Shown here: in pieces, positions 12,316 to 28,563 of the stretch
How the letters are laid out: each line of letters starts with the position of its first letter
Position numbering within the stretch: the stretch's first letter is position 1
IMG/VR virus record: IMGVR_UViG_3300017934_000004
Coordinates: 1 to 35,311 of that record
DNA length: 35,311 bases
Reading direction: 5' to 3' (one strand)
Source: a virus
Notes under the pieces: generated by a model
What the model was told of the DNA's origin: nothing
The model's database searches: none
What the model saw: only the letters and a program-made list of their open reading frames with translations
Made by a program: the position numbers and the translations under genes

Positions 12316-13955
12316 GCCTGCTGTACGACGACGATTTCCAGAGCTATGCAGTCGGCGCATTCCCGCCTTATGGAAACCTGTTTAATATCGCGATTATTGC
12401 GCCGAAGATCGCAAACAGTGTCCCGCCTGGTGGCGTTTTTGGTGCCGCCAAGTACGTTAACATGGCCTCGCTGCCGAGCCTCATCTGGCCGACGACGACA
12501 CCTTCGACGGCACTACCGGCTTACTCTGAATTTTCCGTTTTCCAGCACGTGCTCATCCTGGGCGGCCAGGGGAGCGATGAACAGGGCGCGATTTTGCAGT
12601 TCAATTGCAACCTAAGCCCATTCGCAGGCATAAGCCTCGCTGCGCTGCGCGTTCTCTCCGATGGAACTCTCGCATTTACGGCACCGCAGAGCTCGGCCTT
12701 TTCTCCGAATCAGTTTGTTTCAAACGATTCGATTCTGGTCAATGCCTGGTACTCGATCCAGACCAACGTTCGGTTTTTCGCGGCCGGTGCATTCGTCGGC
12801 GTCGATGTCGAGGTAGCGATCAATAACAAGTCGGTTTTTGCCGGCAGTTTCGTGACCACTCAAACGGTGGCATCGCTGCCGGCCCTATTCGTAAACAATC
12901 TAATTTTCGGTGGACTCGGCGGCGGCTGCGCTTATGGCCGTATCACCGTTTCTGATACAATCCTCCCGATCGGCGCCGATCCCCATGCCGGCACACCCGA
13001 CGTGCGTGTGACGCAAGGCGCGATCGAGCTCATACTCGCGGCGTCTGGTGGCCTGCCGGTGCCAGTGTGCCCTATCGGTGGCGGTAACGCGACGGTCGGG
13101 CAACTCTACAACAAGACATTGACCGCAAGCGGCGGCATTCCGCCTTACACCTGGAATGTAACCGGCCTGCCGCCCGGCATCACATTCAATCCGGTAAGCG
13201 GGCAATTGCTCGGGATCCCGACCACGCCAGGCACGTTTACATACCTGGCGACGGTTACCGACCTGGCGACGGCGATGGGCTCGGTTAACTGCACGATTGT
13301 AGTCGTCGCCTCGCTCACCGTCGATATTCAGTTTTGGGGCGTGCTCCGTTTCCTGGTGCCGGTTGGATCTGGCGACGGCGACGCCGCTGAGTATTCGGCG
13401 ATCGGGCGCCAGGCATTACGCAGCCTGGCCGCGATCGCGCTTAGGGCGGCCTCAGTGCTGCTCGACCAGTTGGCGCGCACCCTGGCGCCGGCGAGCTCAG
13501 GGCGCCGCCTGCAGCTCGCCGCGTCGCCGGCGTCGGCCGTTAAAATTCCGATCCCTATGCCGGCCGCTCTGGAAACTGCAGCGGATAAGTGCAACTTGCG
13601 ACCGTTTGTGCAACCGGTTGCACAAACGACGCGAGAAACAAATGAGTTAGGTATATCCTTAACACTATCATCGCCTCGCATTCGCTTTTCTGGCGGTTTC
13701 AGTTTTTCTTGGCGGCCATTCGTGCAACCGGTTGCACAAACGACGCGAGAAACAAATGAGTTAGGTATTCCCTTAACACTATCATCGCCTCGCATTCGCT
13801 TTTCTGGCGGTTTCAGCTTTTCTTGGCGGCCATTCGTGCAACCGGTTGCACAAACGACGCTAGAAACAAACGGCTTAGGTATTTTACCCTGCCATTTGGC
13901 AGGGGCTCATAAAACGCCGACGTTTTTAGGGGAGGGTATCAGTGGCGCAGCTTAG
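12312..13955 (+). CDS. Fibre/spike-like protein with Ig-like (He_PIG-type) domain; 3' third reads through a 114-bp repeat array
   Basis: Residues 248-332 (13053..13307), containing GQLYNKTLTASGGIPPYTWNVTGLPPGITFNPVSGQLLGIPTTPGTFTY, match the putative Ig domain consensus. VDIQFWGVLRF at 13320..13352. No stop until 13953. GC3 falls from about 75 to about 38 percent inside the repeats, so the real C-terminus is uncertain. Confidence 0.55.
   Translation: MSLLYDDDFQSYAVGAFPPYGNLFNIAIIAPKIANSVPPGGVFGAAKYVNMASLPSLIWPTTTPSTALPAYSEFSVFQHVLILGGQGSDEQGAILQFNCNLSPFAGISLAALRVLSDGTLAFTAPQSSAFSPNQFVSNDSILVNAWYSIQTNVRFFAAGAFVGVDVEVAINNKSVFAGSFVTTQTVASLPALFVNNLIFGGLGGGCAYGRITVSDTILPIGADPHAGTPDVRVTQGAIELILAASGGLPVPVCPIGGGNATVGQLYNKTLTASGGIPPYTWNVTGLPPGITFNPVSGQLLGIPTTPGTFTYLATVTDLATAMGSVNCTIVVVASLTVDIQFWGVLRFLVPVGSGDGDAAEYSAIGRQALRSLAAIALRAASVLLDQLARTLAPASSGRRLQLAASPASAVKIPIPMPAALETAADKCNLRPFVQPVAQTTRETNELGISLTLSSPRIRFSGGFSFSWRPFVQPVAQTTRETNELGIPLTLSSPRIRFSGGFSFSWRPFVQPVAQTTLETNGLGILPCHLAGAHKTPTFLGEGISGAA
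13594..13885. repeat. Tandem repeat, 114-bp unit, about 2.6 copies
   Basis: Units 13608..13721 and 13722..13835 are 111/114 identical. A third partial unit starts at 13836. Each begins with the palindrome GTGCAACCGGTTGCAC. Confidence 0.9.
13608..13851. promoter_or_regulatory. Three copies of the 16-bp palindrome GTGCAACCGGTTGCAC, 114 bp apart
   Basis: Exact copies at 13608..13623, 13722..13737 and 13836..13851, upstream of the gene starting at 13942. Confidence 0.7.
13887..13926 (+). other. Two short hairpins between the repeat array and the 13942 start
   Basis: ccctgcc-attt-ggcaggg (13887..13904) and aaaacg-ccga-cgtttt (13911..13926), followed by a ggagg SD. Confidence 0.4.
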
Positions 13956-14937
13956 AATGCAACCGCTACGTGAGGCCGATATGGTGCTCGACGCGTGCGG
14001 CCGGCGGCAACCGCCGCCGGGTTACCGTTGGGTCGATTTACCGGCCGTGCTGCCGTTCAACTGGTCACAATTCGCGACCGTAGCGCCAGTGACGCCGGCG
14101 CAGGGACGCGTTGCCAACAATTCCAAGGCGAATTTTATTTGCCGCGGCGTGATGATTCAGAGCCCGGTCGGTGTGCGGATCCGCTGGCCTGGCGGCCGCT
14201 ATCTCTCGCAAGGGCCTACTTGGGTCGGCGTGCCGACCGTGCCGGGCAATCCGATCGCGACCGGCGGAAGTATGATCGCGCTCGACAGCGAGCAGGAAAT
14301 CGAGCGCGGCGCAAAAATCGCGATCGAAATGTCGGGCGGCACTGCCGGCCTGGTTAATATACAATTTTGGGGCGTGCGACGGTACTTACTTATGCAACCG
14401 AAAAACGGCGGCGCCGGCAGCTCGCCGGCGATGATTCCGGATCCGATCGACGAGCTGGAAGCACGGCCACGCTATCGGTGCGGGCCGCCTCAGAACATCA
14501 TGGCGCCCGAGTGGTACCTCGGAAACCAATGCACGCCGGAAACGCCGGCAGGTTACGAAGATGAGCCCTTTACATTCTTCTCGCCGCCGATCACCGTGCC
14601 CGTCGCAAAGCAGAATTTCAATAACGCCGTGATCGTGCCCGGCGGCGACGATGTGATTATCCGGCGGTACCGGGCAATCACCGATTACAGCGGGCTCGGT
14701 GGAGCCAGCTCGACGATTCCGGTATTCTCGCTGCGGCTGCCTAATGGCTATTCAGTCACCGGCGGCGATCTTGTTCCGACGCCGTTTCTGTTCTGGATCC
14801 CGATGTTTCCGACGATCCGCCTGCATCCCGGCGATCGGATCATACTCGACGTGGCCGACATGCAACCGGTCGGTACGGGCTCGGTGACGACGACGTTTGA
14901 ATTTGAGGGCGTGAAACGGAGGAAACTCATAGTATGA
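13942..14937 (+). CDS. Two-domain beta-sandwich protein (domain family F-x-[CL]-R-G .. F-x-G-x-[KR])
   Basis: GTG start 6 nt after ggagg. Domain 1 has FICRGV, IRIRWPGGRYL, AKIAIEM, VNIQFWGVRR. Domain 2 has VIIRRYRAI, FSLRLPNGY, LHPGDRIILDV, FEFEGVKRR. Confidence 0.7.
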   Translation: MAQLRMQPLREADMVLDACGRRQPPPGYRWVDLPAVLPFNWSQFATVAPVTPAQGRVANNSKANFICRGVMIQSPVGVRIRWPGGRYLSQGPTWVGVPTVPGNPIATGGSMIALDSEQEIERGAKIAIEMSGGTAGLVNIQFWGVRRYLLMQPKNGGAGSSPAMIPDPIDELEARPRYRCGPPQNIMAPEWYLGNQCTPETPAGYEDEPFTFFSPPITVPVAKQNFNNAVIVPGGDDVIIRRYRAITDYSGLGGASSTIPVFSLRLPNGYSVTGGDLVPTPFLFWIPMFPTIRLHPGDRIILDVADMQPVGTGSVTTTFEFEGVKRRKLIV

Positions 14938-15779
14938 AAATGCCGTGCCAGTTTCCGCGGGATCTTTTCAAGCCGCAATTTGCTTATGCGACGCCGCAGG
15001 GTTACCGCGATGAACCCTACTGGATCCCGTTCAAATTCACCATACCGGCCGACGGCAATATCCATTTAGGCCTACCTTGGTCGCTCGACGACGACGTGCC
15101 TTTTATCCTACGCGGCGTGATCTTCCCGGCGATCGGCACGGCGCAACCTGGCGCGAACACGATCCCGCCGACGGCATTCCCTGCCCTGTGCCGGATGCGC
15201 GATACGGAGGGGAATGCGCTGCAGGATACGCTAGTGCTCGCGCTCGGCGTATGGGCTCAATCCGGCTTTGCTCCGACGACGACGCCGACCGGCATCAACG
15301 CATTCGGTTTTCCTGTGGAGCCGGAAGTTTTGTGCGCGCCGGGCGGCACAATCATTTTCGATTTTCAAATTCCAACCGATGCAGTGCCGGCGACGCTGTC
15401 GCACACGGTCGGCGGTTCGACGGTGGTTTTCGCGGCCGCGGTGTACGGCCTGGCAGGCAACGCTTACACCATCCAGTTTACAAATCCTGGTGCACCTAGC
15501 GTGCCGCTTTCGGTCGCCGTCGTCGGCAATGCGGTAAACGTCACGCTCGCCACTAACGGCGCCTCAGTGATCGTAACCACGATCGCGCAAGCCGCCGCGG
15601 CGATCAATTCAACGCTCGCGGCCCTGGCGCTCATGGGCGCCGTCGTCACTGTCGGCGGCTCTGACCTCGCGACGGCCTTCGGGCCAACAAATCTAGCCGG
15701 CGGCCTGGCGCAAGTCGGCGCCGGCGTCGTACTGACCGGGACTATGATCGGCGTCAAACGCTTTCCGGAGTGTGACTAG
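14934..15779 (+). CDS. Beta-sandwich domain protein with inserted Ala/Val/Thr-rich module
   Basis: ATGA overlap. PQGYRDEPYW, FILRGVIF, CRMRDTEGNAL, PGGTIIFDF. About 110 aa are inserted before the last strand, LTGTMIGVKRF. Confidence 0.7.
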   Translation: MKMPCQFPRDLFKPQFAYATPQGYRDEPYWIPFKFTIPADGNIHLGLPWSLDDDVPFILRGVIFPAIGTAQPGANTIPPTAFPALCRMRDTEGNALQDTLVLALGVWAQSGFAPTTTPTGINAFGFPVEPEVLCAPGGTIIFDFQIPTDAVPATLSHTVGGSTVVFAAAVYGLAGNAYTIQFTNPGAPSVPLSVAVVGNAVNVTLATNGASVIVTTIAQAAAAINSTLAALALMGAVVTVGGSDLATAFGPTNLAGGLAQVGAGVVLTGTMIGVKRFPECD

Positions 15780-15781
15780 CA

Positions 15782-16666
15782 ATGATTCAACGCCATCAGG
15801 ATTATCAACTCACGATTCCGGTCGTGCCGCCAGGCGGCCTGAATGATTTGCCGCTGAAGCTCGACACGGATGCGCCTTTCGCGTTGCGCCTGGTCAAATC
15901 GCGGAACCTCGGGCTCTCTGGTTTTCGTTTTGAAACGCCGCGGCGCCAGTGGCAGAGCTCAGGGCTCACTACTGACCTTATTCCGCAAGCGCCAGGCGCG
16001 ACACTTCCAAATCCGCAACCATCGCGCGGGCGGATCCTCTATCCCGAGCTGGTCTATCCGATCGGCGGGACCATTGTTTGTTCGGTCGGCAACACCACGA
16101 ACTCGAACCTCACAAACGTAAAGCTGCTATTCCGTGGCTCGAAACTTTTCCCCGACGGTGCGATCCCGTCGCCGACCTATCCGGCGAAAATGTCGGTTTT
16201 GCCGTTCCTGTATCCGCCGAGTGAAACGGTGTTAGTGAACGTGCCGGCAGTGACGGCGCCGGCAATCCGAAACGTGCAGCTCCGCAACAAAACCGACGCC
16301 GATTTCGTGCTGCGCTATGGCGTCTGTGATCCATTCACTCTCGGGATCGACGGCGGCCCGTACCGGCCGTTTAATTACACCGAGCTGTATGTGCAGCTCC
16401 GCGATGAAGGCTATAAGGCCTATTCGAATGAGCCGATCCACGTAAACGACCTTTTCGGGCAAGGGCAGCCGCGGCCATTTCAAACCTCCGTCGCCGGCCT
16501 TCCGGTGAATGATGACGACGTTGTTTTCCTGCCAAACGTGTTCACGCCTGAGATTTACATTTTGCGCGATCACTCGATTTACTTCGACGTGTACCGCAAT
16601 GATCCCGGTAGTGGCCCGGTCGATTTGCATTTTCGATTTCAAGGAAGTAAGGTGTTTTCACGATGA
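15782..16666 (+). CDS. Two-domain beta-sandwich protein
   Basis: Domain 1 has FALRLV, FRFETPRRQW, PIGGTIVCSV, LLFRGSKLF. Domain 2 has FVLRYG, LYVQLRDEGY, EIYILRDHSIYFDV, FRFQGSKVF. Confidence 0.7.
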   Translation: MIQRHQDYQLTIPVVPPGGLNDLPLKLDTDAPFALRLVKSRNLGLSGFRFETPRRQWQSSGLTTDLIPQAPGATLPNPQPSRGRILYPELVYPIGGTIVCSVGNTTNSNLTNVKLLFRGSKLFPDGAIPSPTYPAKMSVLPFLYPPSETVLVNVPAVTAPAIRNVQLRNKTDADFVLRYGVCDPFTLGIDGGPYRPFNYTELYVQLRDEGYKAYSNEPIHVNDLFGQGQPRPFQTSVAGLPVNDDDVVFLPNVFTPEIYILRDHSIYFDVYRNDPGSGPVDLHFRFQGSKVFSR

Positions 16667-17145
16667 GTTTATCCAGCCTGGCCCTTGATTCGAGCTGGCG
16701 CGATTACGCCGGCATGTGGAATCCGCTGATCGAGCCGCAAATGGCGCCGATCGAGAAAAGCCCATGCCATGCGCCGCGGCTCGCCCTGGTGCCCGACATT
16801 CTAAACCAGGTGGTGCCGGCGAGCGGCAAGATTCAGTACAACTTTCATCTTGTGCCGGGCTCGCTGATTTGGGGTTTCTTCCCTGGTCAAATGTCGAGCC
16901 TCGATATGGTCGTGCAGCTTACCGATGTCGAGCTGGGGCACCAGTTGTTTCAGGATCCAGTCACGGTCAAGTTTTTGTTGACCGTCGGCGCCAATGCCGG
17001 CCGGTTCCCGTCCTATACCCTGCTGCCGGCGCCGCACCCGGTTATCGGCGACGGCTTATTTACGCTCGAAGTGTGGGGCAACGCCGGCGATGTGGCCGCC
17101 CTAATTCTCGGCGTCGCGGAGGTAACCGATTGCAACGTAAAGTGA
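16663..17145 (+). CDS. Single beta-sandwich domain protein (divergent member)
   Basis: ATGA overlap. MVVQLTDVELGHQLF, IGDGLFTLEV, ALILGVAEV follow the family strand order. Confidence 0.6.
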   Translation: MSLSSLALDSSWRDYAGMWNPLIEPQMAPIEKSPCHAPRLALVPDILNQVVPASGKIQYNFHLVPGSLIWGFFPGQMSSLDMVVQLTDVELGHQLFQDPVTVKFLLTVGANAGRFPSYTLLPAPHPVIGDGLFTLEVWGNAGDVAALILGVAEVTDCNVK

Positions 17146-17642
17146 TTACGCCTGGGCCGTCGCTGGTCACGGCCGCCCGCGCGATCGCCGGCGCGGATCC
17201 GCGGAACGCGATCGGCACGTATCCCTATCAGTGGCTCTTTCCTGGGCCGCATTCGCGCAACGTGACCGCTCAAAATACGGTCGCGCTTTCCGGACCTGGC
17301 TTTACTGATTTGATTCTGCAGTACGTCGTACCCGATGGCGAGATTTTTTCATGCCGCGGTGTTGTCGTCGGTTTCATCGGCACTGGTTGGAGCGAAGGCA
17401 GCACACAGCTAGAATGGACTCTTAGCGTTACCGCGGCCGGCACGCGCAAAGTGGATTTTTTTGCCAACATCAGAACGCATCTGGGGTCGCTGGAGTCGCC
17501 TTACCCGGTTCTCGGCAGGCTCGAATTTGCTCCGCTCAGTGTTTTGCAGTGGACCGTACAAAACACCGGCGGGCCGTCGGCGGGCACGTTCAGTTTCGCG
17601 CACCTGGTCGGGCACACTTATCCGCAAGTCGAGGCGGCTTAA
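17130..17642 (+). CDS. Single beta-sandwich domain protein
   Basis: 3' part of track ORF 16716..17642. TTG at 17130 lies 7 nt after ggagg (alternative GTG at 17142 in a GTGA overlap). FSCRGVVVG, LEWTLSV, LQWTVQN, FSFAHLVGH. Confidence 0.55.
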   Translation: MQRKVITPGPSLVTAARAIAGADPRNAIGTYPYQWLFPGPHSRNVTAQNTVALSGPGFTDLILQYVVPDGEIFSCRGVVVGFIGTGWSEGSTQLEWTLSVTAAGTRKVDFFANIRTHLGSLESPYPVLGRLEFAPLSVLQWTVQNTGGPSAGTFSFAHLVGHTYPQVEAA

Positions 17643-17643
17643 C

Positions 17644-17934
17644 ATGGGCGACGAAGGCAACGGAAAAATCCCGTTTCTCGGGCATCCGCCGGCGATTCGC
17701 ATTGTGCGGACGCAAACGCAGCGGATCGGCTGCCCATATTGTCCGGCGGATCCAAAAACCGGTATGCCGACCGGGTATGTCGATGTGACCGCGGAAGTCA
17801 CGCCAGGGCCGAGCGGCCATCCTCAAATGCAGATACAGAATTTCCACACACCGAAGAAGTGCGTAACGTGCGGGCGATTTTTCCAGCTCGAACCGGTGTT
17901 GCAGGTCAGAGGCGTTCCAATCCCAGGGGAGTAA
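17644..17934 (+). CDS. Small zinc-ribbon protein
   Basis: In-frame ATG at 17644 of track ORF 17461..17934. CPYC..(47 aa)..CVTC four-Cys arrangement. Confidence 0.5.
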   Translation: MGDEGNGKIPFLGHPPAIRIVRTQTQRIGCPYCPADPKTGMPTGYVDVTAEVTPGPSGHPQMQIQNFHTPKKCVTCGRFFQLEPVLQVRGVPIPGE

Positions 17935-17939
17935 ACACT

Positions 17940-18413: not shown

Positions 18414-19478
18414 ATGGCAATCGCTCCAGTAGCTCACGCGACCGCGGCGGGGCCGAATAGTGCGACGACACCAGCGCAGGACACGAGCACTGCGAATCTC
18501 ATAGTCCTTTCGGCCTTAACCGGGCCGCTCGCGGTGGGGCCGGCCGTGCAGGATAGTAACCATAACATCTGGACGCCGCTCAACGGAAACCGCGGCGGCG
18601 GATTTTTCTGGAATCAGTTTTTTTACTGCATTAATCCAGTTGTCGGGCCGGGCCACACGTTCACCATAAACGATGCCGGCGGTTTCGGCTCTATCCAGAT
18701 GACGGCCTGGAGTGGCGCCGCGGGAGGCTTCGACTTACAAGGGGCTGATTTTGGCGGATCGACAACGCAGCCACTCACTCCGAGCGTAAACGGATGCCTC
18801 GTTGTCGCTTCCTACGTCGGCAGCAATGACATAACAAGTGTCAATCTTCCCTTCGCTCTCAGCGATACCGAGCCGTTTACCGGCGGCGTCAATTACGCCT
18901 CGGGCACGGCTTTCGTCATCCAAACGACGGCCATCCTGGCGCAGTGTACGTTTAACGGAGTCGGCTCAGGCGGTCCGCTGTCAATTGCATCTTTCAAACC
19001 GTCGGCAACGGCTACCACGATCACGCCACCAGCAGGCGCACTCGCGACGGCCACATTTGCGCCACTGCTCACCGATACGATCACGCCAGGCGCCGCGGCT
19101 CTCGCGATCGCGACCTTTGCGCCAGCACTGATCGGCGGATTATTGGTGCCGACCGGTGCGCTCAGCCTGCAAGGTTTCGCGCCGGCTCTGACGCGCACAA
19201 TACCGGTGCCAGCGGGCGCGCTTACGCTCGCGACCTTCGCCCCGCTGCTGGGCGAGGTAGTCGGGCCAGTGCCGCCGGCTCATCTGGTGCTGACAACCTA
19301 TGCGCCGAAACTGGTGTTTTCATTTGGGCCGGCTGCCGGCAATCACGCCGCCGCCTGGTGGTGGAGCGGCGCGGCGGCGCGCATGATAAACGATGCCGGT
19401 TTTCAACTGCTGGTGGAGCCGCACTTACAGAATGAGAATTACACCGGCGAGCCGCAACCGGATGAGGGCGCGCCATGA
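18414..19478 (+). CDS. Fibre-like protein with five 20-aa tandem repeats
   Basis: 354 aa. Globular N-terminal domain, then 5 x (I/V)xPxAGALxLATFAPxLxxx. Confidence 0.65.
   Translation: MAIAPVAHATAAGPNSATTPAQDTSTANLIVLSALTGPLAVGPAVQDSNHNIWTPLNGNRGGGFFWNQFFYCINPVVGPGHTFTINDAGGFGSIQMTAWSGAAGGFDLQGADFGGSTTQPLTPSVNGCLVVASYVGSNDITSVNLPFALSDTEPFTGGVNYASGTAFVIQTTAILAQCTFNGVGSGGPLSIASFKPSATATTITPPAGALATATFAPLLTDTITPGAAALAIATFAPALIGGLLVPTGALSLQGFAPALTRTIPVPAGALTLATFAPLLGEVVGPVPPAHLVLTTYAPKLVFSFGPAAGNHAAAWWWSGAAARMINDAGFQLLVEPHLQNENYTGEPQPDEGAP
19020..19319 (+). repeat. Five in-frame 60-bp tandem repeats inside 18414..19478
   Basis: Units start at 19020, 19080, 19140, 19200 and 19260. The first two share atcacgcca and all share the ..gcgc.ct....c.....c.t..gcgcc core. 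Confidence 0.8.
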
Positions 19479-19506
19479 TTGCGAAGGCGATTTCGAGGGC
19501 TGTTTC

Positions 19507-20121
19507 ATGAACCTTGCCGCCATCAGGCCGCGCCGGCAAATGCCGCACCCGGTACTTTACGCGCCGCGGCGCCGCGGCGGCCTGGCCGGCTACGGCCTAG
19601 GCGTCGTGCAAGTGCTTGCACCGTCGCAAACGGCTACGATCGCGAGCACGATTCAGCAAGTCGAGGGCTACTATCCTGGCTCGCTCGCGTATCAGAATAA
19701 CAACCCTGGAAACCTGGTCTACGTCGGCCAGACAGGGGCCTCGCCCGGCGCCGGCGGGTTTGCGCAATTCCCGAGCTACTCGGCCGGCCTGCAGGCGCTC
19801 GACGATCAGATACAACTCTATGCCGCCCGCGGCATGACGATTTCTCAAATGATGAACACGTACGCGCCGGCCTCGGCCGGCAATAATCCGACAGCGTACG
19901 CGAACCAAATCGCCGGCGCGCTCGGTGTGGATCCATCAACCTCGCTGCTCGACCTGGCTGGGTTTTCGACCAGCTCGCCGGCGCCGCTGCCTGCCCTGCC
20001 CGATGTCTCGACGTGGGCGAGCTGGCTACCGGACTTTTCGAGTATCGACCCGTCGAGCCTGGCAATGATCGCCGGCGGCCTGCTGCTCGGAATTGTTGTG
20101 CTCAACGTCACCGGCGACTAG
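19507..20121 (+). CDS. Tail-anchored protein with NNNPGN motif domain (possible cell-wall-active or virion-associated protein)
   Basis: In-frame ATG at 19507. Basic leader ..RRRGGLAGYGLGV. YQNNNPGNLVY..GFAQFPSYSAGLQAL..YAP..NNPTAYANQIA. C-terminal helix LAMIAGGLLLGIVVL. Confidence 0.55.
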   Translation: MNLAAIRPRRQMPHPVLYAPRRRGGLAGYGLGVVQVLAPSQTATIASTIQQVEGYYPGSLAYQNNNPGNLVYVGQTGASPGAGGFAQFPSYSAGLQALDDQIQLYAARGMTISQMMNTYAPASAGNNPTAYANQIAGALGVDPSTSLLDLAGFSTSSPAPLPALPDVSTWASWLPDFSSIDPSSLAMIAGGLLLGIVVLNVTGD

Positions 20122-20276: not shown

Positions 20277-20831
20277 ATGAGAGATAGCGAAAGCATGAAG
20301 GCATACGCCGACGATTTGGAAAGCCTGGTGCTCGAACACCGGCAGGCGATCGAGCGTTTAGAGGATCGCCTTAACGGCGATCGTGGAAACCTCGACCCCG
20401 ACGACCTGGTGCGCAGTCAGATCGAGTTTTTGGTTTTGAATGTGCGCGGGCTCATGCTCGGCAAAGAACAGGAATTGCGCCAGGTGCGCGCCGAGCTCGA
20501 ATATCGGCGGCAAATGGAGGCCGATCGCGGACCCTGGCAAGAAACGCGGCCGGCCCGCATGTATCCGACCGAGCCGGCGTATCCGCCGCTCGCGACGACG
20601 CCAGGCGAATTATTTACCAGGGCCGCCGAATACATGGGGCCGGTGCCGGCGGCCGCGATCGCGCGTACAGTTTTCGCTCATCACAGAAACCCGGCGATGG
20701 TGATGATTTGCTACCGCTTAAACAACGGCGAGCTGCTGCCGATCCACAACAAAGCCGAAAAGTGGGATCCCTCGGGCGAGTGGGATTGCATCTACGAAAC
20801 CGCGATCGAGGGCGCGCAACATGCCTCTTGA
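20277..20831 (+). CDS. Hypothetical protein with coiled-coil N-terminus
   Basis: ATG 4 nt after ggagg. In-frame trim of track ORF 20169..20831. Confidence 0.55.
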   Translation: MRDSESMKAYADDLESLVLEHRQAIERLEDRLNGDRGNLDPDDLVRSQIEFLVLNVRGLMLGKEQELRQVRAELEYRRQMEADRGPWQETRPARMYPTEPAYPPLATTPGELFTRAAEYMGPVPAAAIARTVFAHHRNPAMVMICYRLNNGELLPIHNKAEKWDPSGEWDCIYETAIEGAQHAS

Positions 20832-21447
20832 ATTGCCGGCCGACATTCCGCGGACTATCTTCCGCACGCTCGACGGCCGCATGACGACCGAGGCGCAGGC
20901 CGCTTTTGAGGCCGCGAAATCGATCGTAGCGAACGGCCGCAACCTCAACGATGCGGTACTACTCACGCGCGCCGTGCGCGTGCTGGTGCTCTATGGGCAC
21001 TATACGCAATGGCCGCGGCCGGTCGTGTTCCCGGCGATCGGGATGCTGCAGGGGTGTTTCGATCGCCAGCTATACCGCGGCCGCGGGATCCGCGCGCAGC
21101 TCGCCGGCTTCCTATTCCGCTTAGTTCACGCGAGACTAGAGGCGGAGGCCCTAAAAAAGTATGGCGCCAACTCGCCAGGCTGGAACGATTTTCACATGGC
21201 GTACTGGTTTATGACCGCGGATCGGGCGACTGTGTGCGAGCTCCACCGGCGCGCGACCTTAACCCTGGTGCCAGGCGACGGACGCGAAATGCGGGCCGTG
21301 AAGGCCACCGCGGTCTACCTGGTGCAAAATGTTCGGGCTCAGTATCCGGATTTTGATGAGGCGCTAGGGCGCGTAGAAACGCGCTGTAAGCAGCCGGTGA
21401 TCGCCGGGGATCTAGCGGAAGGCCCGGCGCCGGGCGGCGCTGCATAG
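20821..21447 (+). CDS. Hypothetical protein
   Basis: 208-aa ORF overlapping the upstream stop by 11 nt. No motif recognised. Confidence 0.5.
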   Translation: MPLELPADIPRTIFRTLDGRMTTEAQAAFEAAKSIVANGRNLNDAVLLTRAVRVLVLYGHYTQWPRPVVFPAIGMLQGCFDRQLYRGRGIRAQLAGFLFRLVHARLEAEALKKYGANSPGWNDFHMAYWFMTADRATVCELHRRATLTLVPGDGREMRAVKATAVYLVQNVRAQYPDFDEALGRVETRCKQPVIAGDLAEGPAPGGAA

Positions 21448-21509
21448 CGCGCGCGAGGCCGTGCCGTTTGAATTTTATGAACAGACTGGCAGCGGTTCCG
21501 AGCCGTCCC

Positions 21510-21521
21510 GCAACCGGTTGC
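21510..21521. promoter_or_regulatory. Seventh copy of the palindrome core GCAACCGGTTGC
   Basis: Exact 12-bp core about 90 nt upstream of the gene starting at 21614. Confidence 0.6.
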
Positions 21522-21613
21522 CTAACTCGACGCGTTAAAGTATGATTCTAAACATAGCGGCGACGACCCAAGGGCCGGCCCGCAAACTGGTGTTTAAGGG
21601 ACGGGGGTAAAAA

Positions 21614-22271: not shown

Positions 22272-22661
22272 ATGAGTATCTCACTTGCATGGCCGACGCC
22301 GGCCAGGATTCGCGAAATCGCCGCAGCGTTCCGTCAATGGCCGAGGTGGGAATTCGCGGTCGTCGCTGCGGCCGATTTGGAAATTTGGGCCGCCCGGCTC
22401 GACGCCGCGGGGCTGCCGCCGCCGCCGGCGGCGATCAAGTGGATGTCCACACAAAAAGGCGAGGTTTATATCGCCGTCGATGAGGCGAGCGAGCGCGTGC
22501 TTGGTTACGTCGAAAAGATTGAAGGGCCGGCGGGCGGCCCGATGATGTGGCGCTGGACTATTTTCGATAAAACTTTTCTGACCGCAGAGGCCGCGAAAAC
22601 GCAGCTTGAAATCGCGTTTAGGCCGCATAGTACGGCAACTTCAGTCTACCCCTTGAACTGA
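22272..22661 (+). CDS. Hypothetical protein
   Basis: 129-aa ORF with a weak aaaggga SD. Confidence 0.5.
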   Translation: MSISLAWPTPARIREIAAAFRQWPRWEFAVVAAADLEIWAARLDAAGLPPPPAAIKWMSTQKGEVYIAVDEASERVLGYVEKIEGPAGGPMMWRWTIFDKTFLTAEAAKTQLEIAFRPHSTATSVYPLN

Positions 22662-22858
22662 TGCCTCGGCCATGTTACTTTTGCCTTGCGTGGAAGCGTG
22701 CCGAATAGACCGGCGTAAGTGACCCGCCGCCAAAGTGGACCCCGTTCGATCAAGCTATCCTCCGAGTCGGGCGGGTGTTCCCCTGGCGCCGCCGGCGCCG
22801 CTTGGGACTCCTCAGCACACCGGGAATTACTGCACAATTCGGCGCCGGCTAATTTACC

Positions 22859-23119
22859 ATGCACCCGCACGCGTTTCCTAATTGCGAGTTTTGCGGCGCT
22901 GAGGGCGCCGGCGCGCTACTGTGCGACGGACGCCTATCGTCACCCGAGCAAGTTACTCACGTCAAAACCTGCGATCGCCGTATGTGTCGCAAGTGCGCCG
23001 GCAAACCGGTTTTGGTGATTCACATGCAAATTCAAAAGAAGGGCGGCGGCCGCGGCAGCGCTTGGGACTCGCGCGACCTATGCCCTGAATGCCGCGAGCT
23101 CGGGCGTAGCGCATGGTAA
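22859..23119 (+). CDS. Cys-rich (zinc-binding-like) small protein
   Basis: CEFC .. C..(C) .. CRKC .. CPEC pairs. Last rightward gene before the convergent junction. Confidence 0.45.
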
Positions 23120-23239
23120 TTTAACCGCCAGTAGGATACAGCCCGAGGGATCCCTCCACCGGCTTGCTTTTGTGCGCCTTTGGCTTGGGGCGCGCCGGCT
23201 CTTGGGCTTGCCTTACGGCTGTACCCTACTCGCGGTTGT

Positions 23240-23746
23240 TCATCGCCTAGCCTTCAAATCCTCGATCGCCACCCGAGGGCGATCGCCGCGACCGTCGAGA
23301 ATCAGCTTGTCCAGTTCTTCCATGCCCGGAATGCTGCGGCTCGCAACGTCGGGCAACTGCTTGAGCACGCGCGAAGCCTGCGCCGGCCGGCGTCCTAGAG
23401 GTTTCAGCATCGGCTTACAGGTAAACGCGGCCGGATCCGCCTCGATTTGCATCTTGAGCTGGGTGATGAGCTGCGCTAGTTCCGGATCGGCCACGGCGGC
23501 GCGTTCTATGAACTGGCACGAATTGATAACCGTCGTGTGATGTCGGCCGATCGCACGGCCGACCTCCGACAAGGCCATGCCGGCGCCGACCAAGAGATAC
23601 GCGACTAAGTGCCGGGGGTGTGCGATATGGCGGGCATTGCTGCGACGCGTGAGGGTGCCCGGCACATAACCATACGCTTGCTCCACCAGGGCGAGGATCG
23701 CCGCTGCATTCGTTTTCTGCATTCGTGCCGGCGTCAAGAATTGCAT
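23240..23746 (-). CDS. DnaA domain IV-like helix-turn-helix DNA-binding protein
   Basis: RHIAHPRHLVAYLLVGAGMALSEVGRAIGRHHTTVINSCQFIE matches the DnaA C-terminal pattern (R..a.pRqiamYL.r.lt..Sl.eIG..fG.rdHtTV.ha...i). ATG at 23746 follows an agagg SD. No AAA+ domain is present. Confidence 0.6.
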   Translation of the reverse strand: MQFLTPARMQKTNAAAILALVEQAYGYVPGTLTRRSNARHIAHPRHLVAYLLVGAGMALSEVGRAIGRHHTTVINSCQFIERAAVADPELAQLITQLKMQIEADPAAFTCKPMLKPLGRRPAQASRVLKQLPDVASRSIPGMEELDKLILDGRGDRPRVAIEDLKARR

Positions 23747-23756
23747 AAGCGGGCCT

Positions 23757-24011
23757 CTAATCCGGATAGCGGGTGCGGGTCGGCGCCGCGGGACCATCGA
23801 CCTTGAACGTAGCGAAGTCGATAGCACGGTTCGAGTTCGACCATTCACAATTTGCCAGCTCAGGGTTTGGATCGCCGGCCATCTCCAAGGTGCAGGGCGC
23901 CTGGCGGCTGGTCACTAAGGCGCACTGCCTGCCTCCGGAAACATCATCGGGCAACGGCACAAGGATCCTCAGTAACTCATTCGCGCTTTTACCATAAAAC
24001 GGGCAAGGCAT
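23757..24011 (-). CDS. Hypothetical protein
   Basis: Strong SD aaggggga 5 nt upstream of the ATG at 24011. Confidence 0.55.
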   Translation of the reverse strand: MPCPFYGKSANELLRILVPLPDDVSGGRQCALVTSRQAPCTLEMAGDPNPELANCEWSNSNRAIDFATFKVDGPAAPTRTRYPD

Positions 24012-24029
24012 CGTTTCCCCCTTTTTCTA

Positions 24030-24203
24030 TCAGTTCGATTTGAAAAAACCAACGACGTGTTCGAGGCCTTCCGCTTTGAGTAAGTCGAGCCGGCCGGTTT
24101 CGCGCAGGTAAGCGGCGCGCCTAGTGCGCCAGTCTTTATCGTTCGGCTTTTCGTGTAGAGTAATCTTCGGCGCAGGCGCCATGGGAGTATGTTTGGATTT
24201 CAT
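24030..24203 (-). CDS. Small basic hypothetical protein
   Basis: ATG at 24203 forms an ATGA overlap with the stop of 24200..24535. Trimmed from track ORF 24030..24371. Confidence 0.4.
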   Translation of the reverse strand: MKSKHTPMAPAPKITLHEKPNDKDWRTRRAAYLRETGRLDLLKAEGLEHVVGFFKSN

Positions 24204-24535
24204 GGCCGTCGGTACTCCAAAAACCCGAGCTGGTGCCGGCCGCTCGCGCAAATGATCGGCAGCCGGCGCCGGCAGCTCGCCGGGCGGATCCACCCGCGGG
24301 GCTCGGACTCGATTTGCGGATCCCAACGGGCAAGCTCGCGCGCTGCCGTATCTACCTCGGCGTAGCACCATCCATCCTCGGTATGGTCAGGCGTTCGCAC
24401 CACTAGGCGCACATTGAACATTTGCAGACGCAGGAAAGCCTCGCGGCCGTCGGACAAGTGGCGGCGTGTGAACTTTTCGAGCCTGGCCGCGGCCCTTTGG
24501 AGCCACTTAAAGCTATAGACAAACTCGACGCTCAT
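24200..24535 (-). CDS. Hypothetical protein
   Basis: ATGA overlap with the upstream stop at 24532..24535. Confidence 0.5.
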   Translation of the reverse strand: MSVEFVYSFKWLQRAAARLEKFTRRHLSDGREAFLRLQMFNVRLVVRTPDHTEDGWCYAEVDTAARELARWDPQIESEPRGWIRPASCRRRLPIICASGRHQLGFLEYRRP

Positions 24536-24846
24536 GACCGGGCCGCCTTAGTGCGCGACCTGGCGCCGGCGGCCGCGATCGCCGCGGCGTTCGATCGACG
24601 CCGACGGAAGGGCAGCGGCGCCGATGGAATTCGACGAAATGCGTTCATGAGCGCGCCGGTTCTCATCTCATACGCAACCTCGGCATAGTCGAGCAGGTGC
24701 GCTAGGATTTCGGCGCAATTCGAGCAAAGCGGCGCCGTCCCGAGGGCCTTTTCTTGTGCTGGGCCGGCCCAACTGCAGCCATTGGCACACGCGCGATCGT
24801 AACTACAGCGGCAAATCTTACAACGTGGCATCAGATTTCCTTTCAT
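24532..24846 (-). CDS. Cys-rich small protein
   Basis: CKICRC .. C..GC .. C..C arrangement with a basic C-terminal tail. Confidence 0.5.
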   Translation of the reverse strand: MKGNLMPRCKICRCSYDRACANGCSWAGPAQEKALGTAPLCSNCAEILAHLLDYAEVAYEMRTGALMNAFRRIPSAPLPFRRRRSNAAAIAAAGARSRTKAARS

Positions 24847-25261
24847 CCAAGGCGGCCAGTATCGGCCGGCTCAAATCCTTGCGAGCTGCACGCGTTTCCG
24901 CGTGGTGTTTTTTGTCATAGTCCAGATGGCACCATTGGCACCAGGCGGCTAAGTTGTCGTCGCGATCGTCGCCCGAAACGTGATTACGGTGCGCGATCGT
25001 GAGCACGACGCGGATCCGCCGAGTTTTCCCGGCTGGTCGATCGCCGATGTATCGGCCTAATGTGTCGCGCCAGTGTTCGATAACTCCGTCCGTCCATGTT
25101 ACGGTTTGATCGAGCCAACAGCCGCCGATTCTAGTTACATCGGTGTGGTTTGGAATGTCGCAGGCCTCGCACTTGTTCCCAGCCCGCGCGAGGATCCGCG
25201 GCCGCGTGACCGTTCGCCAAATGCGGCCGTAATAGATGCGCAGCTCTTTTCTAATCGGCAT
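24818..25261 (-). CDS. HNH endonuclease
   Basis: CEAC .. LTIAHRNHVSGDDRDDNLAAWCQWCHLDYD (CxxC, H-N-H, CxxCH). ATG at 25261. The upstream part of track ORF 24818..25525 looks like non-coding read-through. Confidence 0.7.
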   Translation of the reverse strand: MPIRKELRIYYGRIWRTVTRPRILARAGNKCEACDIPNHTDVTRIGGCWLDQTVTWTDGVIEHWRDTLGRYIGDRPAGKTRRIRVVLTIAHRNHVSGDDRDDNLAAWCQWCHLDYDKKHHAETRAARKDLSRPILAALDERKSDATL

Positions 25262-25442
25262 GGTCGCGGCCGTACAAACTGCCGTCGGCGTGGATCCCTC
25301 TCGACACTGGAAGGCGTAACGATGTTGGCGCCGCGGGCTCGGGCCTGGTAGCGATCGCGAGCAGCGCGGCGATAATCCCGATGCCGGCATTTGAAACGGT
25401 GAAGCGTTCGGGCTCTTTAACGTGCGGCTCGTAGACGAGCAT
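25251..25442 (-). CDS. Possible small membrane protein
   Basis: In-frame ATG at 25442 of track ORF 25251..25517. Helix AGIGIIAALLAIA. GC3 about 70 percent. Fills the gap between 25495 and 25261. Confidence 0.3.
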   Translation of the reverse strand: MLVYEPHVKEPERFTVSNAGIGIIAALLAIATRPEPAAPTSLRLPVSRGIHADGSLYGRDHAD

Positions 25443-25494
25443 GAAAATTGAGCCGACTGCCCAACATAGAGGGCGACGATGTGCACTAGTTTTC

Positions 25495-26004
25495 TCATGG
25501 CAGCAACCCCGTCGCACATGTCCAATGCACCGGTACGGCGATCGCGCTATAGGCGAACTGCTGCCGGCACTTGTCTTGCTGTTCCTTATCCAAACCTGGC
25601 CCGAGGGCGACTAGGGTGTAAACGTCGCCCTGTTTTAGAAACTCCTGGCAGGCGGCGCAGCGCGATACAGGCACGCTCAGATAGGGGTGACCCGAGGGCA
25701 GGGGTTCGGACTTCCGGAGTATCGACATACGGCGCCATTCGTCGGGATTTGGGGCATTAGCGTTCACTGTGCCACGGCCGAGCTCGGTACCTGGTATCGC
25801 CTGGAGATTACCAGAGACAACGGCAGGCGCGAGCGCGCCGGGCCGCTGCCATTCTGGAATTTGCCAGGGGCCGACGGCCGGCGGTATGCCGCCCGGCGGA
25901 GCCTCGGGGCGCCGCGGAAGTACCTCGGGTGTGAGCCCGGCCGCCTCGGCTATTTTGCCGACCTGCACAATCCCGGTTTCGCGAGTGGTTTTATCTTCGG
26001 GCAT
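25495..26004 (-). CDS. Hypothetical Pro-rich protein
   Basis: ATG at 26004 preceded by an aggggga SD. 169 aa. Confidence 0.55.
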   Translation of the reverse strand: MPEDKTTRETGIVQVGKIAEAAGLTPEVLPRRPEAPPGGIPPAVGPWQIPEWQRPGALAPAVVSGNLQAIPGTELGRGTVNANAPNPDEWRRMSILRKSEPLPSGHPYLSVPVSRCAACQEFLKQGDVYTLVALGPGLDKEQQDKCRQQFAYSAIAVPVHWTCATGLLP

Positions 26005-26251
26005 CGCTTCCCCCTGTATTGGCAGGCCGTTCGCACCGGCAGGGCATACGATCGCAGGCCGGGCAGTTCATGCGGCCGATATTCGCCGAGCTGCCGACAA
26101 TTCGGGCGATGCGCAAGGCGGCGAGGATCACGGCCAGCTCATCGCCATCCGCCTGCAAATCGACGACGCGGCGATCGGCTACGGCCGGCAGTGGATCGCC
26201 AAGGTGCCAGATGACTACACCATCGGTATGTGGATCCCCAAAATAGATCAC
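25991..26251 (-). CDS. Hypothetical protein
   Basis: GTG at 26251 in a GTGA overlap with the recombinase stop, preceded by an aggggggg SD. Confidence 0.5.
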   Translation of the reverse strand: MIYFGDPHTDGVVIWHLGDPLPAVADRRVVDLQADGDELAVILAALRIARIVGSSANIGRMNCPACDRMPCRCERPANTGGSDARR

Positions 26252-26850
26252 TTCCCCCCCTTATCCTCGGCCTCGGCCAAAGTGCGGCCGACGACGCTTT
26301 TACTGGACTTCAATTCAGTAGCGATCTCGCGCAGGCTATAGCCGGCATCTCGCAGCTCGCGCACGCGTATCCTGTCGAGCACTGCCGGCCGGCGGCCGCC
26401 GATGACGCCATTCGCCCTGGCGCGCGCCAGACCGGCCCTAACGCGGGCCTGCATCGTTAGGCGTTCCTGCTGCGCGATAAATGCCGCAATCGCGATGAGC
26501 AGCTCGCCGGCAGGGCCGGCAGTTCTGAAATGCTCCTCGTTCATGCTCCATAACTGCACGCCGGAACTGCGCAGCCTAGCAATGAGCTCGAACGCGCTCG
26601 CAGGCCCGCGGCGGGTGAGCCGGCTTAGATCGAACACCAGCACGGTATCAAAGTCGCGCCGGGCCGCGTCCCGCATCAAAGCCTCAAGGCCGGGCCGCGC
26701 GGAGCTCGCGCCAGTGATTTCATCGGTGTAGACTGCGGCGACTTTCCAACTCATCGCCGCGGCGTATTTCCGAAGGGCGCGGACCTGGCTACTGAGGTTC
26801 TGCTTTCCGTCCGACGTGCTGATTCGGGCATAGACGCCTGCGGTTTTCAT
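26248..26850 (-). CDS. Small serine recombinase (resolvase/invertase family)
   Basis: N-terminal GVYARISTSDG (catalytic Ser context). D..LVFDLSRLTR. C-terminal HTH GYSLREIATELKSSKSVV. 200 aa. Confidence 0.9.
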   Translation of the reverse strand: MKTAGVYARISTSDGKQNLSSQVRALRKYAAAMSWKVAAVYTDEITGASSARPGLEALMRDAARRDFDTVLVFDLSRLTRRGPASAFELIARLRSSGVQLWSMNEEHFRTAGPAGELLIAIAAFIAQQERLTMQARVRAGLARARANGVIGGRRPAVLDRIRVRELRDAGYSLREIATELKSSKSVVGRTLAEAEDKGGK

Positions 26851-27398
26851 TGGAGCGCTAACACTCCCTGCAAGTAGAACCGCAAACCGCGCTCGGCCGC
26901 CAAGTCAAGCGCGTCGCCGGCAATCTCTAGCCTAAAATCGGATTGAGGCGCGATCGCAATTTGAGGCGCGATCGGTTGCCAGGCCGCCGAGCTAAACGCA
27001 TTCGGCGCCATCAGGGCCAGCGGCGCCGCGAAATAGGTCTTGCCGCCAATCACTAGCTGGCATTCAAACGCGTCAAGGATCCGCGCCGCCTCGGCGACCG
27101 GAATATCGCCGAGGCCGCTCCATCCGATCGAGCGAATAGCAAAATTCGTCGGGCTCGGTCCAGTGAAAAGTATCTCACGCGTTTCCTTGCCCGGCTGCAG
27201 CATGACGGTATCCCAGATAGACCAATCCTGCAGCCAGGAATCCGCCCAACCCTCAATGATTGGATTACGCGTGCGCATGCTCGCGATCGCGTCGGCGAAG
27301 TGCGGAAGCGGCGGCTGTACTAACTGCTCTGGCTTGACCGCGAGGGCCGCGGCCAGCATCGCAAGAAATGACCGACGGCTTACGGGCTCGATGCTCAT
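26847..27398 (-). CDS. Tat-signal-bearing short paralog of the capsid-like protein
   Basis: N-terminus MSIEPVSRRSFLAMLAAALAV (SRRxFL twin-arginine pattern). IIEGWADSWLQDWSIWDT, FAIRSIGW, CQLVIGGKTYF, IAPQSDFRLEI, FYLQGVLALQ align with IMEGWVDRGPWQYWDT, LLMAIGFY, CYMQFKIDDKIF, IAPIQQFSMDLI, YLIVQLDGLTDRSVQ of 9308..10057. Confidence 0.65.
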   Translation of the reverse strand: MSIEPVSRRSFLAMLAAALAVKPEQLVQPPLPHFADAIASMRTRNPIIEGWADSWLQDWSIWDTVMLQPGKETREILFTGPSPTNFAIRSIGWSGLGDIPVAEAARILDAFECQLVIGGKTYFAAPLALMAPNAFSSAAWQPIAPQIAIAPQSDFRLEIAGDALDLAAERGLRFYLQGVLALQ

Positions 27399-27619
27399 AA
27401 AATCCTTTCTTTCCCCTCCCCGTACAATTCGGCATAGGCGGCGAAGCCGTAGCGGAATCCATCAAGAAAACACGCGGCCAGGCAACCTAGGATTATGCCG
27501 ACAAGCAGCAACGGGAAACCTAGCCATACTGTGATAACTCCAAGAATCACCTGACCCAGGTTTATTGGTTCGGGTGGCGGCACCGGAGATTTATGCTCGC
27601 TGTCCATGATGGTTTTCAT
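27395..27619 (-). CDS. Small two-helix membrane protein
   Basis: ATGA overlaps at both ends. VILGVITVWLGFPLLLVGIILGCLAACFL. Confidence 0.55.
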   Translation of the reverse strand: MKTIMDSEHKSPVPPPEPINLGQVILGVITVWLGFPLLLVGIILGCLAACFLDGFRYGFAAYAELYGEGKERIL

Positions 27620-27840
27620 ATTCGGGTTAGACCCTTGAGTATCCGCACAGCGCGCATTCCAACGATCCAGGCATGAACCGCGATGTATGCCTCACCGCTG
27701 CAATTTCGCCCGGCCTCGATCGAGTTAAGCACACGCGGCGTTATTCCAATCTCGCGGGCCGCATCGTGGCAACTAAGGCCGGCTGCCGCGCGCAGGCTGC
27801 GCACGATGCTGCAAAAATCTTGATAGTCGTTTCCGATCAC
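27616..27840 (-). CDS. XRE-family helix-turn-helix transcriptional regulator
   Basis: LRAAAGLSCHDAAREIGITPRVLNSIEAGRN matches the HTH_3 pattern. GTGA overlap with the upstream stop. Confidence 0.7.
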   Translation of the reverse strand: MIGNDYQDFCSIVRSLRAAAGLSCHDAAREIGITPRVLNSIEAGRNCSGEAYIAVHAWIVGMRAVRILKGLTRI

Positions 27841-28136
27841 GCACGACCCTTTCGCTCGGTTAGCTGGTGACTCGCAACTCTCACGCCGATCAGCTCGGCA
27901 GCCTCGAAAATTGTGTCGGCGTGGCCGGTTCCGACCAGCTCTTTTTTATGGTAAACGGCCCATGCAATCCGTTGCACACCGAGCACCCAGTAGCGAGCGA
28001 AAACAAACCGGAAACCGCGGCGGCTGCCTTTCCATTTTCCGGTTTTTGCCAAGCCGCGAGTGATGTCGCCGCGAGCTCGGGCAGTGAGGATTTCGGTAGC
28101 CGCAATCATACCGCTAGTGGCTAGAGTGTCCCACAA
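27837..28136 (-). CDS. Hypothetical protein, first gene of the leftward operon
   Basis: 99-aa ORF with a TTG start (alternative ATG at 28109). No SD seen. Confidence 0.45.
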   Translation of the reverse strand: MWDTLATSGMIAATEILTARARGDITRGLAKTGKWKGSRRGFRFVFARYWVLGVQRIAWAVYHKKELVGTGHADTIFEAAELIGVRVASHQLTERKGRA

Positions 28137-28180
28137 ACTCTAGTTTGGGTCAATTTTTTTTGGTTGAAAAAGTACCAAAT

Positions 28181-28243
28181 GTGCAACCGGTTGCACGGCG
28201 AGTTTGTGCAACCGGTTGCACGAAAACGCGCAACCGGTTGCAC
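28181..28243. promoter_or_regulatory. Three clustered copies of the palindrome (operator, iteron or res-like array)
   Basis: GTGCAACCGGTTGCAC at 28181..28196 and 28206..28221, and GCGCAACCGGTTGCAC at 28228..28243. Lies in the divergent region between 28136 (-) and 28564 (+). Confidence 0.75.
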
Positions 28244-28244
28244 G

Positions 28245-28514: not shown

Positions 28515-28563
28515 ACATGAAAAGCTCGATCCGTTATCCACTCGCGTTCGGAGTCGCCCGGCA

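Follow-up and report, generated by a model that had tools for sequence, protein, structure and literature searches.

Which protein reads the 16-bp palindrome that recurs in the viral DNA of IMG/VR record IMGVR_UViG_3300017934_000004, and what purpose does the site serve? The window, by which we mean the whole analysed stretch of 35,311 nucleotides, carries the palindrome at three places, near 13.6, 21.5 and 28.2 kb, the last of them close to a gene for a Rep-like protein (28564-29637). We consider it probable, at about 60%, that the palindrome is an iteron of this lambda-O-like initiator, which the element itself encodes, and that it marks the replication origin together with a number of outlying sites. 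From the comparison of sequences we infer binding by Rep, the function of the 28.2-kb cluster as an origin, and the roles proposed below for the distal sites.

An earlier sequence-only reading of the same DNA had put forward three explanations: an operator for one of two helix-turn-helix (HTH) proteins, Rep iterons at the origin with a distal copy-control (handcuffing) array, and res-like sites for a serine recombinase. The second is the best supported, as the sites track rep, lie within rep in most homologues, change together with the predicted recognition helix of Rep and are flanked by A+T-rich DNA. Handcuffing may be part of it.

Copies of the palindrome in the window

Exact copies of the palindrome GTGCAACCGGTTGCAC start at 13608, 13722, 13836, 28181 and 28206, and the copy at 28228 has a single mismatch, reading GCGCAACCGGTTGCAC. 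Seven positions have the 12-bp core GCAACCGGTTGC without a mismatch, among them 21510, where the core alone is present. The coordinates of the seven copies reported by the sequence-only reading were right, but the complete 16-mer is exact at only five of them. When up to three mismatches are allowed, the 16-mer has eight matches against 0.28 expected, and none of 100 shuffles reached this number. The claim that the copies are far above chance needs one correction. Those at 13608, 13722 and 13836 are all part of a single 114-bp tandem repeat (13608-13883, 2.4 copies, 95% identity) and are therefore not independent. About five independent occurrences remain, which is still well beyond chance.

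Degenerate copies had also been listed, at 1927, 14871 and 27963, and these had to be given up. The core with up to two mismatches has seven matches besides the seven exact ones, where 3.2 are expected, so that the degenerate copies at 1927 (11 of 12 positions), 27962 (three mismatches in 16) and 14862 (two mismatches in 12; this is the correct position for 14871) occur at about chance level. A scan of a genome collection of 596 Gb for the 16-mer returned at least 120 loci, roughly the chance number, and none of them is related to the window. A literature search on the core motif returned an unrelated primer only.

Related loci keep the sites upstream of rep and often within it

The comparison set consists of 11 related metagenomic loci and 22 Rep-like homologues. 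An exact-pattern scan of IMG/VR led to contig IMGVR_UViG_3300046473_000469 (loci L009 and L015), and ten further loci (L151-L161) were obtained by protein look-ups with Rep and with a 90-aa gene that is described below. Single-protein scans of IMG/VR with Rep and with the open reading frame (ORF) 11185-12315 gave no match.

The IMG/VR relative is collinear with the window at about 70% DNA identity. Conservation in related genomes, which had been named as a check, is borne out by this contig, whose palindrome is the same at each of the three equivalent places: two palindromes 138 bp apart immediately precede the homologue of gene 13942, rep and the leftward operon have a three-site cluster between them, and the core, here with one mismatch, follows the homologue of 20821-21447. 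In L151-L161 the identity of Rep to that of the window ranges from about 67% down to 29%. Palindromes are nevertheless found upstream of rep in all ten related loci that cover this region. Most loci have two to four of them, while L154 and L161 have a single clear copy. A cluster of three or four sites with a spacing of 22-26 bp lies upstream of rep in L015, L152, L153, L155, L156 and L158, and the upstream cluster of L157, L159 and L160 is made of lineage-specific variants of the palindrome.

Seven loci (L154, L155, L157, L158, L159, L160 and L161) carry two more perfect or near-perfect copies inside rep, 78-159 bp apart, which sit where the linker joining the N-terminal domain to the remainder of the protein has an insertion. 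The translated site is found twice in 15 of the 22 Rep homologues. The linker insertion is missing from the seven members of the clade to which the window belongs, and the rep gene of the window has no core match at up to two mismatches. In six of the seven loci with a linker pair (about 20 kb or shorter), matches to the respective lineage motif with up to two mismatches are confined to the cluster and the linker pair. L155 is the exception, with two extra weak matches elsewhere.

Site and predicted recognition helix change together

Five types of site can be distinguished (GCAACCGGTTGC, GCAACGCGTTGC, GCGCAGAAAACTGCGC, GCGAAACGGGTTTCGC and TGAAACCGGTTTCA). Each corresponds to its own linker peptide: site type GCGCAACCGGTTGCGC (GTGC...GCAC in the window) goes with AQPVAQ, GCGCAACGCGTTGCGC with AQRVAQ, GCGCAGAAAACTGCGC with AQKTAQ, GCGAAACGGGTTTCGC with AKRVSQ and TGAAACCGGTTTCA with xKPVS. 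In L157, L159 and L160 the intragenic pair and the upstream cluster share one variant at the DNA level. This points to a site reader that is encoded by the element and not to a general host factor.

In Rep, the predicted recognition helix varies along with the type of site. It reads KEYAxAGL in proteins with AQ(P/R)VAQ, KEVAxKGL with AQKTAQ, KELAIKGL with AKRVSQ and KYNAxKGL with KPVS. We regard this correlation as supportive, not as proof. The five natural site types and four recognition-helix variants together represent a recognition code that can be tested.

The Rep-like protein

The gene at 28564..29637 (plus strand) codes for a protein of 357 aa with an N-terminal winged helix, a disordered linker (residues 111-151) and a helical C-terminal domain. 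The AlphaFold model has helices at 27-40, 52-59 and 63-74, followed by a beta wing at 78-91 and the linker. The family phrog_678, annotated as 'replication initiation O-like', matches eight of 11 family members, with a best E-value of 1.1e-6. The best matches in a fold search with the model are winged-helix dimers (ArsR and MarR types, TubR, AspA and a RepA_N-DNA complex), which were returned with high probability but non-significant E-values.

Nearly all of the large loci have in common Rep, an HNH endonuclease and three proteins without a family match. Among these widely shared proteins, Rep is the only one with a predicted sequence-specific DNA-binding domain, and it accompanies the sites in every related locus. 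We propose that a Rep dimer would bind each 16-bp dyad (G(T/C)GCA-N6-TGC(A/G)C). Together with their A+T-rich flanks, the three sites beside rep would then constitute the core origin and probably also the region through which Rep controls its own expression.

The cluster upstream of rep

The three palindromes of the cluster (28181-28196, 28206-28221 and 28228-28243) have their centres 25 and 22 bp apart and are located 320 bp upstream of rep, between divergent operons. As judged from the sequence, we propose that 28181..28243 serves as the core array of iterons at the origin and as the site of Rep auto-control. The cluster is bordered by A+T-rich DNA on both sides. On the left it is abutted by a tract of 28% G+C (28141..28180), which is the second most A+T-rich 40-mer of the genome, a candidate DNA-unwinding element, and also holds the -35 hexamer of a putative leftward promoter. 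On the right, a tract of 25% G+C (28248..28287) is the most A+T-rich 40-mer of the genome. It includes the conserved CGACGTATCTCTATTACATTT and is near-invariant in an alignment with three relatives.

The putative leftward promoter TTGACC-N17-GACACT (28125..28153, minus strand) would serve the operon that opens with the 90-aa gene. Its hexamers and their spacing are kept in three relatives, but it does not appear in the list from the promoter scan and is to be taken as a tentative assignment. Relative to this predicted promoter, the site centres are at about -70, -95 and -117. The putative rightward promoter of rep, TTGCAA-N18-TACGAT (28349..28378, plus strand), lies about 110 bp to the right of the cluster. 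It scores below the scan threshold and is a candidate at the level of the consensus; its counterpart in a relative reads TTGACT...TAAAAT. The cluster is thus outside the predicted -35 and -10 hexamers of both divergent promoters, which speaks against an operator of the type of the lambda right operator (OR).

The stretch that separates the cluster from the rep promoter contains a conserved hairpin, CAGCAGCAGCT / GGCTGCTGCTG (28287..28324). It (CAGCAGCAGC/GCTGCTGCTG) is found in eight of 11 lineages, with loops of 9-44 nt, and in L157 it has the compensatory pair CAGCATCAGCA / TGCTGATGCTG. This hairpin, which has no Rfam match, may belong to the origin or represent a small structured RNA.

Several other features were observed around the cluster. 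In the presumed leader of rep, just before the start codon, a 15-bp long-range hairpin is formed by CTCAGAAAACTCCCG / CGGGAGTTTTCTGAG, with 28446-28460 pairing with 28500-28514. The same arrangement with other sequences occurs in L015 (about 4143-4206), L156 (7578-7652) and L159 (9874-9930), and these changes appear, as judged by eye only, to amount to covariation. A DnaA-box-like TTATCCACT is located at 28534-28542, 22 bp ahead of the rep start, and GTTATCC is present in close relatives only. The short motif AGTACC(A) adjoins the cluster in the window (28170-28178) and, in either orientation, in L152, L153, L157, L159, L160 and L161, regardless of the type of palindrome. We also considered that the palindromes might be terminators, and rejected this since the scan lists pseudo-terminators on the minus strand only, which are formed by the palindromes themselves.

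The distal sites

The region 13608-13851 had been taken by the sequence-only reading for a control region upstream of an operon. Its three sites turned out to be intragenic. They are located within an ORF of 547 aa on the plus strand (12312..13955) which has an Ig-like domain (Pfam He_PIG, E 4.5e-10), remains open through all three sites, where it reads FVQPVAQ, and has a stop codon that overlaps the start of gene 13942. The IMG/VR relative has the VQPVA frame open from the start of the locus and through both sites up to a stop that overlaps the GTG of the next gene (GTGA). The spacing is a multiple of three in both cases (114 bp in the window, 138 bp in the relative), and the two genomes share the conserved flanking peptide FVQPVA(Q/R)(T/S)TR..L.ISLT.SSP, in which third positions have changed synonymously. 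The open frame, the spacing and the conserved peptide together place the array within a translated C-terminal tail. At about 13570 the G+C content at third codon positions of this ORF drops, from about 0.8 to 0.4, and the tail with the array corresponds to about 13570-13955.

The frame in which the array is read (VQPVAQ) is that of AQPVAQ in the Rep linkers, an agreement with a chance of one in three. We read the 13.6-kb array, on the basis of these sequence features, as the counterpart of the rep-linker pair, and place its move in the ancestor that the window shares with the IMG/VR relative. The widely spaced linker pair of the sister lineages would thus correspond to the triplet at 13608-13851, in frame within the tail of ORF 12312-13955. 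A predicted DNA-binding site here dictates a peptide (AQPVAQ, AQKTAQ, AKRVSQ or KPVS) within two different proteins.

Two further details of the array were noted. Its first copy widens to a 26-bp perfect palindrome, CGTTTGTGCAACCGGTTGCACAAACG (13603-13628), which copies 2 and 3 do not. A half-site-like TGCAAC is found about 20 bp upstream of the array (13590-13595), and likewise before the intragenic sites of L154 and L155.

The single site CCGCAACCGGTTGCCT (21508..21523), with its exact 12-bp core, is intergenic, ahead of gene 21614. Its position is kept in three lineages, represented by the window, L009 (9944) and L156 (1458), the site following the homologue of 20821-21447. It overlaps a sigma-70-like promoter, TTGCCT-N17-TATGAT (21518..21546, plus strand), a consensus match of which one was found against 0.1 expected. 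As the -35 hexamer of this promoter is the right half of the site, occupancy would be expected to repress it.

We propose that the array on the plus strand at 13608..13883 and the site at 21510 are auxiliary Rep sites. They might loop to, or handcuff with, the origin cluster, either for copy control or for activation of a second origin. Alternatively, they might be roadblocks or repressor sites which tie the expression of downstream genes to occupancy by Rep. A bolder version is possible, although we hold it only tentatively. The origin would be split into a cluster upstream of rep and a spaced pair that is always in frame within coding DNA. In the lineage of the window, this second part would have moved into the tail of a virion gene (with an Ig domain, tail-fibre-like) 14.6 kb away, where it could act as a second origin or looping partner and possibly couple replication to the downstream virion genes; or else the true reader would be the 90-aa protein, with a new DNA-binding fold. 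Should the distal array be functional, it would place initiator sites, unusually, inside a structural gene. To our knowledge, there is no precedent for an iteron array in a structural gene 14.6 kb from rep.

Other candidate readers of the palindrome

Several points weigh against the assignment of the sites to Rep. The similarity to lambda O is marginal: an hhalign comparison of Rep 6-77 with lambda O 24-97 gave an E-value of 0.0042 but a probability of only 8%, Pfam Phage_rep_O was detected in just one of 11 members (E 0.0099), and the E-values of the fold search are all above 0.1 and not significant. The correlation between helix and site is confounded by phylogeny, because any protein of a lineage diverges alongside its sites. 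Cumulative GC skew gave no origin signal (block-shuffle p = 0.55). The role of an array in a structural gene 14.6 kb from rep is guesswork, and sites 78-138 bp apart in coding DNA differ from the tight iteron array of lambda. Two more points concern the 90-aa protein. Its gene adjoins the cluster in the window and in L015, L151-153, L156, L157 and L160, and where it was not found, in the loci of L154 and L161, the absence covers only 21 kb from contigs of 41 and 46 kb.

This 90-aa alpha-beta4-alpha protein (27837..28109, minus strand), the first gene product of the leftward operon that borders the cluster, is the most serious rival of Rep, and even so we consider it unlikely to be the binder. 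It would be a small transcription regulator of a new fold that autoregulates the divergent early promoters, affects rep through the intragenic sites of sister lineages and also gates the promoter at 21518, where the overlap of the 21510 site with the -35 hexamer would suit such a role. The protein is rare, with only four matches among 5.8 billion sequences, but a hidden Markov model built from these retrieved homologues in most of the related loci. L155 and L159 have the gene away from the cluster, and in L158 it is cut off by the contig end. An invariant basic stretch, GKWKGSRRGFRF, and a model (mean predicted local distance difference test, pLDDT, of 87) with weak likeness to the nucleic-acid-binding PUR and dsRBD-like folds are in its favour, whereas the fold search gave no significant match to known DNA-binding folds. 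Its apparent absence from the 21-kb loci of L154 and L161 speaks against it, as the sites there are perfect and have the same sequence as in lineages with the 90-aa gene. A regulator of this kind would also leave unexplained why sites occur in the rep linker of 15 of the 22 homologues.

A host factor as the reader of the site is improbable, as is a function of the site as a hairpin in DNA or RNA. The same core is found in lineages whose Rep proteins share only 35% identity, the outer positions change symmetrically from T..A to C..G, and the palindrome fits the pattern TGnAAnCGnTTnCA, which we take to be the consensus of LacI-family operators; the idea of a host reader goes back to this LacI/GalR fit. 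On the other hand, three lineages have quite different palindromes which are altered in concert at both locations, pointing to a reader encoded by the element. A hairpin would have a stem of only 6 bp and is not followed by a run of T on the plus strand. An operator of the LacI/GalR type was rejected despite the fitting pattern, since a regular-expression scan of the window found no gene for a LacI-type HTH and since the sites vary with the phage lineage.

Less probable still is the first explanation of the sequence-only reading, in which the palindrome is the operator of a lambda-like three-operator switch, read by the XRE protein (27616-27840) or by a DnaA-domain-IV-like protein (23240-23848). 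Three adjacent dyads between divergent operons would suit such a switch, and both proteins carry HTH domains. However, none of the relatives has an XRE homologue or any HTH at the corresponding position, not even the one whose palindrome is identical at each of the three places, and the gene for the DnaA-domain-IV-like protein was detected in two relatives only, the IMG/VR relative and, weakly, L155. The cluster also lies beyond the -35 and -10 hexamers of the divergent promoters, as far as these can be predicted from the consensus. DnaA domain IV normally reads asymmetric 9-mers, and a separate 9-mer box of the DnaA type is available at 28534-28542. This box seems a more natural target than the palindrome, whether for host DnaA or for the DnaA-domain-IV-like protein.

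The least probable explanation takes the triplets for res-like sites, accessory and crossover, of the serine recombinase (26248-26850). In its favour, three subsites do precede an operon with a resolvase gene, and unrelated Hydrogenedentes contigs have the same 16-mer duplicated around a serine recombinase gene. Against it, no resolvase was found in the loci of about 21 kb from L154 and L161, which retain the sites. Conservation of the 16-bp sites is strongest at the centre without conserved outer 12-bp ends, the opposite of known res and hix sites, where the recognised bases are the outer ones of subsites of 25-34 bp. Recombination among the palindromes near 13.6, 21.5 and 28.2 kb would also lead to the loss or inversion of essential genes, yet the relative is collinear.

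The Hydrogenedentes copies deserve a separate description. They are found in contigs of metagenome-assembled genomes (L065, at 32-55 and 730-753; L041, at 1366; L102, at 2780), where the 16-mer is located in the HTH-coding part of a gene for a serine recombinase of 237 aa and is read as ATGCT. A second copy is found nearby, in L065 as a 24-bp direct repeat, and the element is unrelated to the window. There the 16-mer may be the recombinase's own site. A link between these contigs (L065, L041) and the window was rejected, as the recombinase is not closely related to the enzyme of the window and as the family of the window retains its sites without a resolvase.

The element and its other genes

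An exact direct repeat of 67 bp at the ends of the window (1-67 and 35245-35311) indicates a circularly closed assembly of 35,244 bp. We treat the element as phage-like because its relative is listed in IMG/VR. It has neither DNA nor protein matches among 50,697 phage and 72,556 plasmid records: blastn of 26000-30000 against the phage and plasmid collections found no match, nor did tblastn of Rep and of ORF 3548-4894. Scans with Rfam and for tRNAs were equally negative. Most ORFs of the window have no Pfam or PHROG family, and the element belongs to an orphan group known from metagenomes only. For such an almost unannotated element, the palindrome provides a first functional anchor in the form of a probable origin and its initiator.

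The leftward operon contains the small serine recombinase of the resolvase/invertase type (26248..26850, minus strand; Pfam Resolvase, E 4e-34). The XRE-type HTH gene (27616..27840, minus strand; Pfam HTH_31/HTH_3) is specific to the window. The DnaA-domain-IV-like HTH protein is encoded at 23240..23848 (minus strand; Pfam Bac_DnaA_C, E 1.5e-11), and the HNH endonuclease within 24818-25525 (minus strand; phrog_1571, E 4.8e-20), with a start that is probably Met89. The latter is the best-conserved protein of the family, with 50-90% identity. A lytic-transglycosylase-like domain is encoded at 19393-20121. Where head genes had been assumed, two glycosyltransferase-like genes were found instead (4897-6156 and 6707-7465). 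The virion module is without annotation, as no part of the window gave a recognisable terminase, portal or capsid family.

Comparison with known replication systems

The closest parallel is found in lambdoid phages. Their origin lies in the middle of gene O and consists of 19-bp imperfect inverted repeats, which are bound by O dimers, and an A+T-rich region; in Stx phages, two extra iterons lengthen O by 13 residues (PMC7466680). The sites of the element resemble those of ori-lambda in being inverted repeats of 16-19 bp that follow each other at about 20-25 bp (20, 24 and 23 bp in lambda, 25 and 22 bp in the window) beside A+T-rich DNA. Rep would resemble O in its N-terminal winged helix and as a dimeric initiator, both of which are predictions here. 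In 15 of 22 homologues the sites are, as in ori-lambda, in the linker-coding part of the initiator gene, where the number of sites alters the length of the protein. Here as in lambdoid phages, the sequence of the site and the N-terminal domain change together. In contrast to ori-lambda, rep of the window holds no site, its tight cluster being 320 bp upstream, and the intragenic sites of the relatives are two in number and widely spaced, at 78-102 bp. The sequence similarity to lambda O is marginal, and downstream of rep no lambda-P-like loader was recognised.

With respect to the distal sites, the better parallels are among plasmids. In R6K, core iterons at the gamma origin activate the distant alpha and beta origins by pi-mediated looping, and ori beta is located at the end of the initiator gene. 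The element shares with R6K a core iteron cluster and one or a few initiator sites kilobases away. It differs in having dyads, whereas the R6K iterons are direct repeats of 22 bp to which pi, an initiator of the Rep_3 type, binds as a monomer; Rep does not match Rep_3, no Pfam family matches Rep of the window, and looping is proposed by analogy only. Plasmid P1 has two iteron arrays, incC at the origin and incA for control, which are subject to handcuffing by RepA. Here, too, we propose an array of initiator sites at the origin and a separate second one that acts as a control locus. The P1 arrays, however, consist of 19-bp direct repeats and flank repA within about 1.5 kb, whereas the second array of the element is made of palindromes, 14.6 kb away in another gene.

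Two other systems are similar in layout. As in res of Tn3 and gamma-delta, three adjacent dyad subsites precede an operon with a small serine recombinase, but subsite size and conservation pattern do not fit, and in two lineages the sites persist without a resolvase in the fetched loci. The lambda OR differs in that the cluster is off the predicted core promoters and no conserved HTH repressor gene lies alongside.

In summary, the design is a known one, with lambda O and ori-lambda as the model for the cluster and distal initiator sites as in R6K and P1, while the family, the split arrangement and the array in a structural gene are new.

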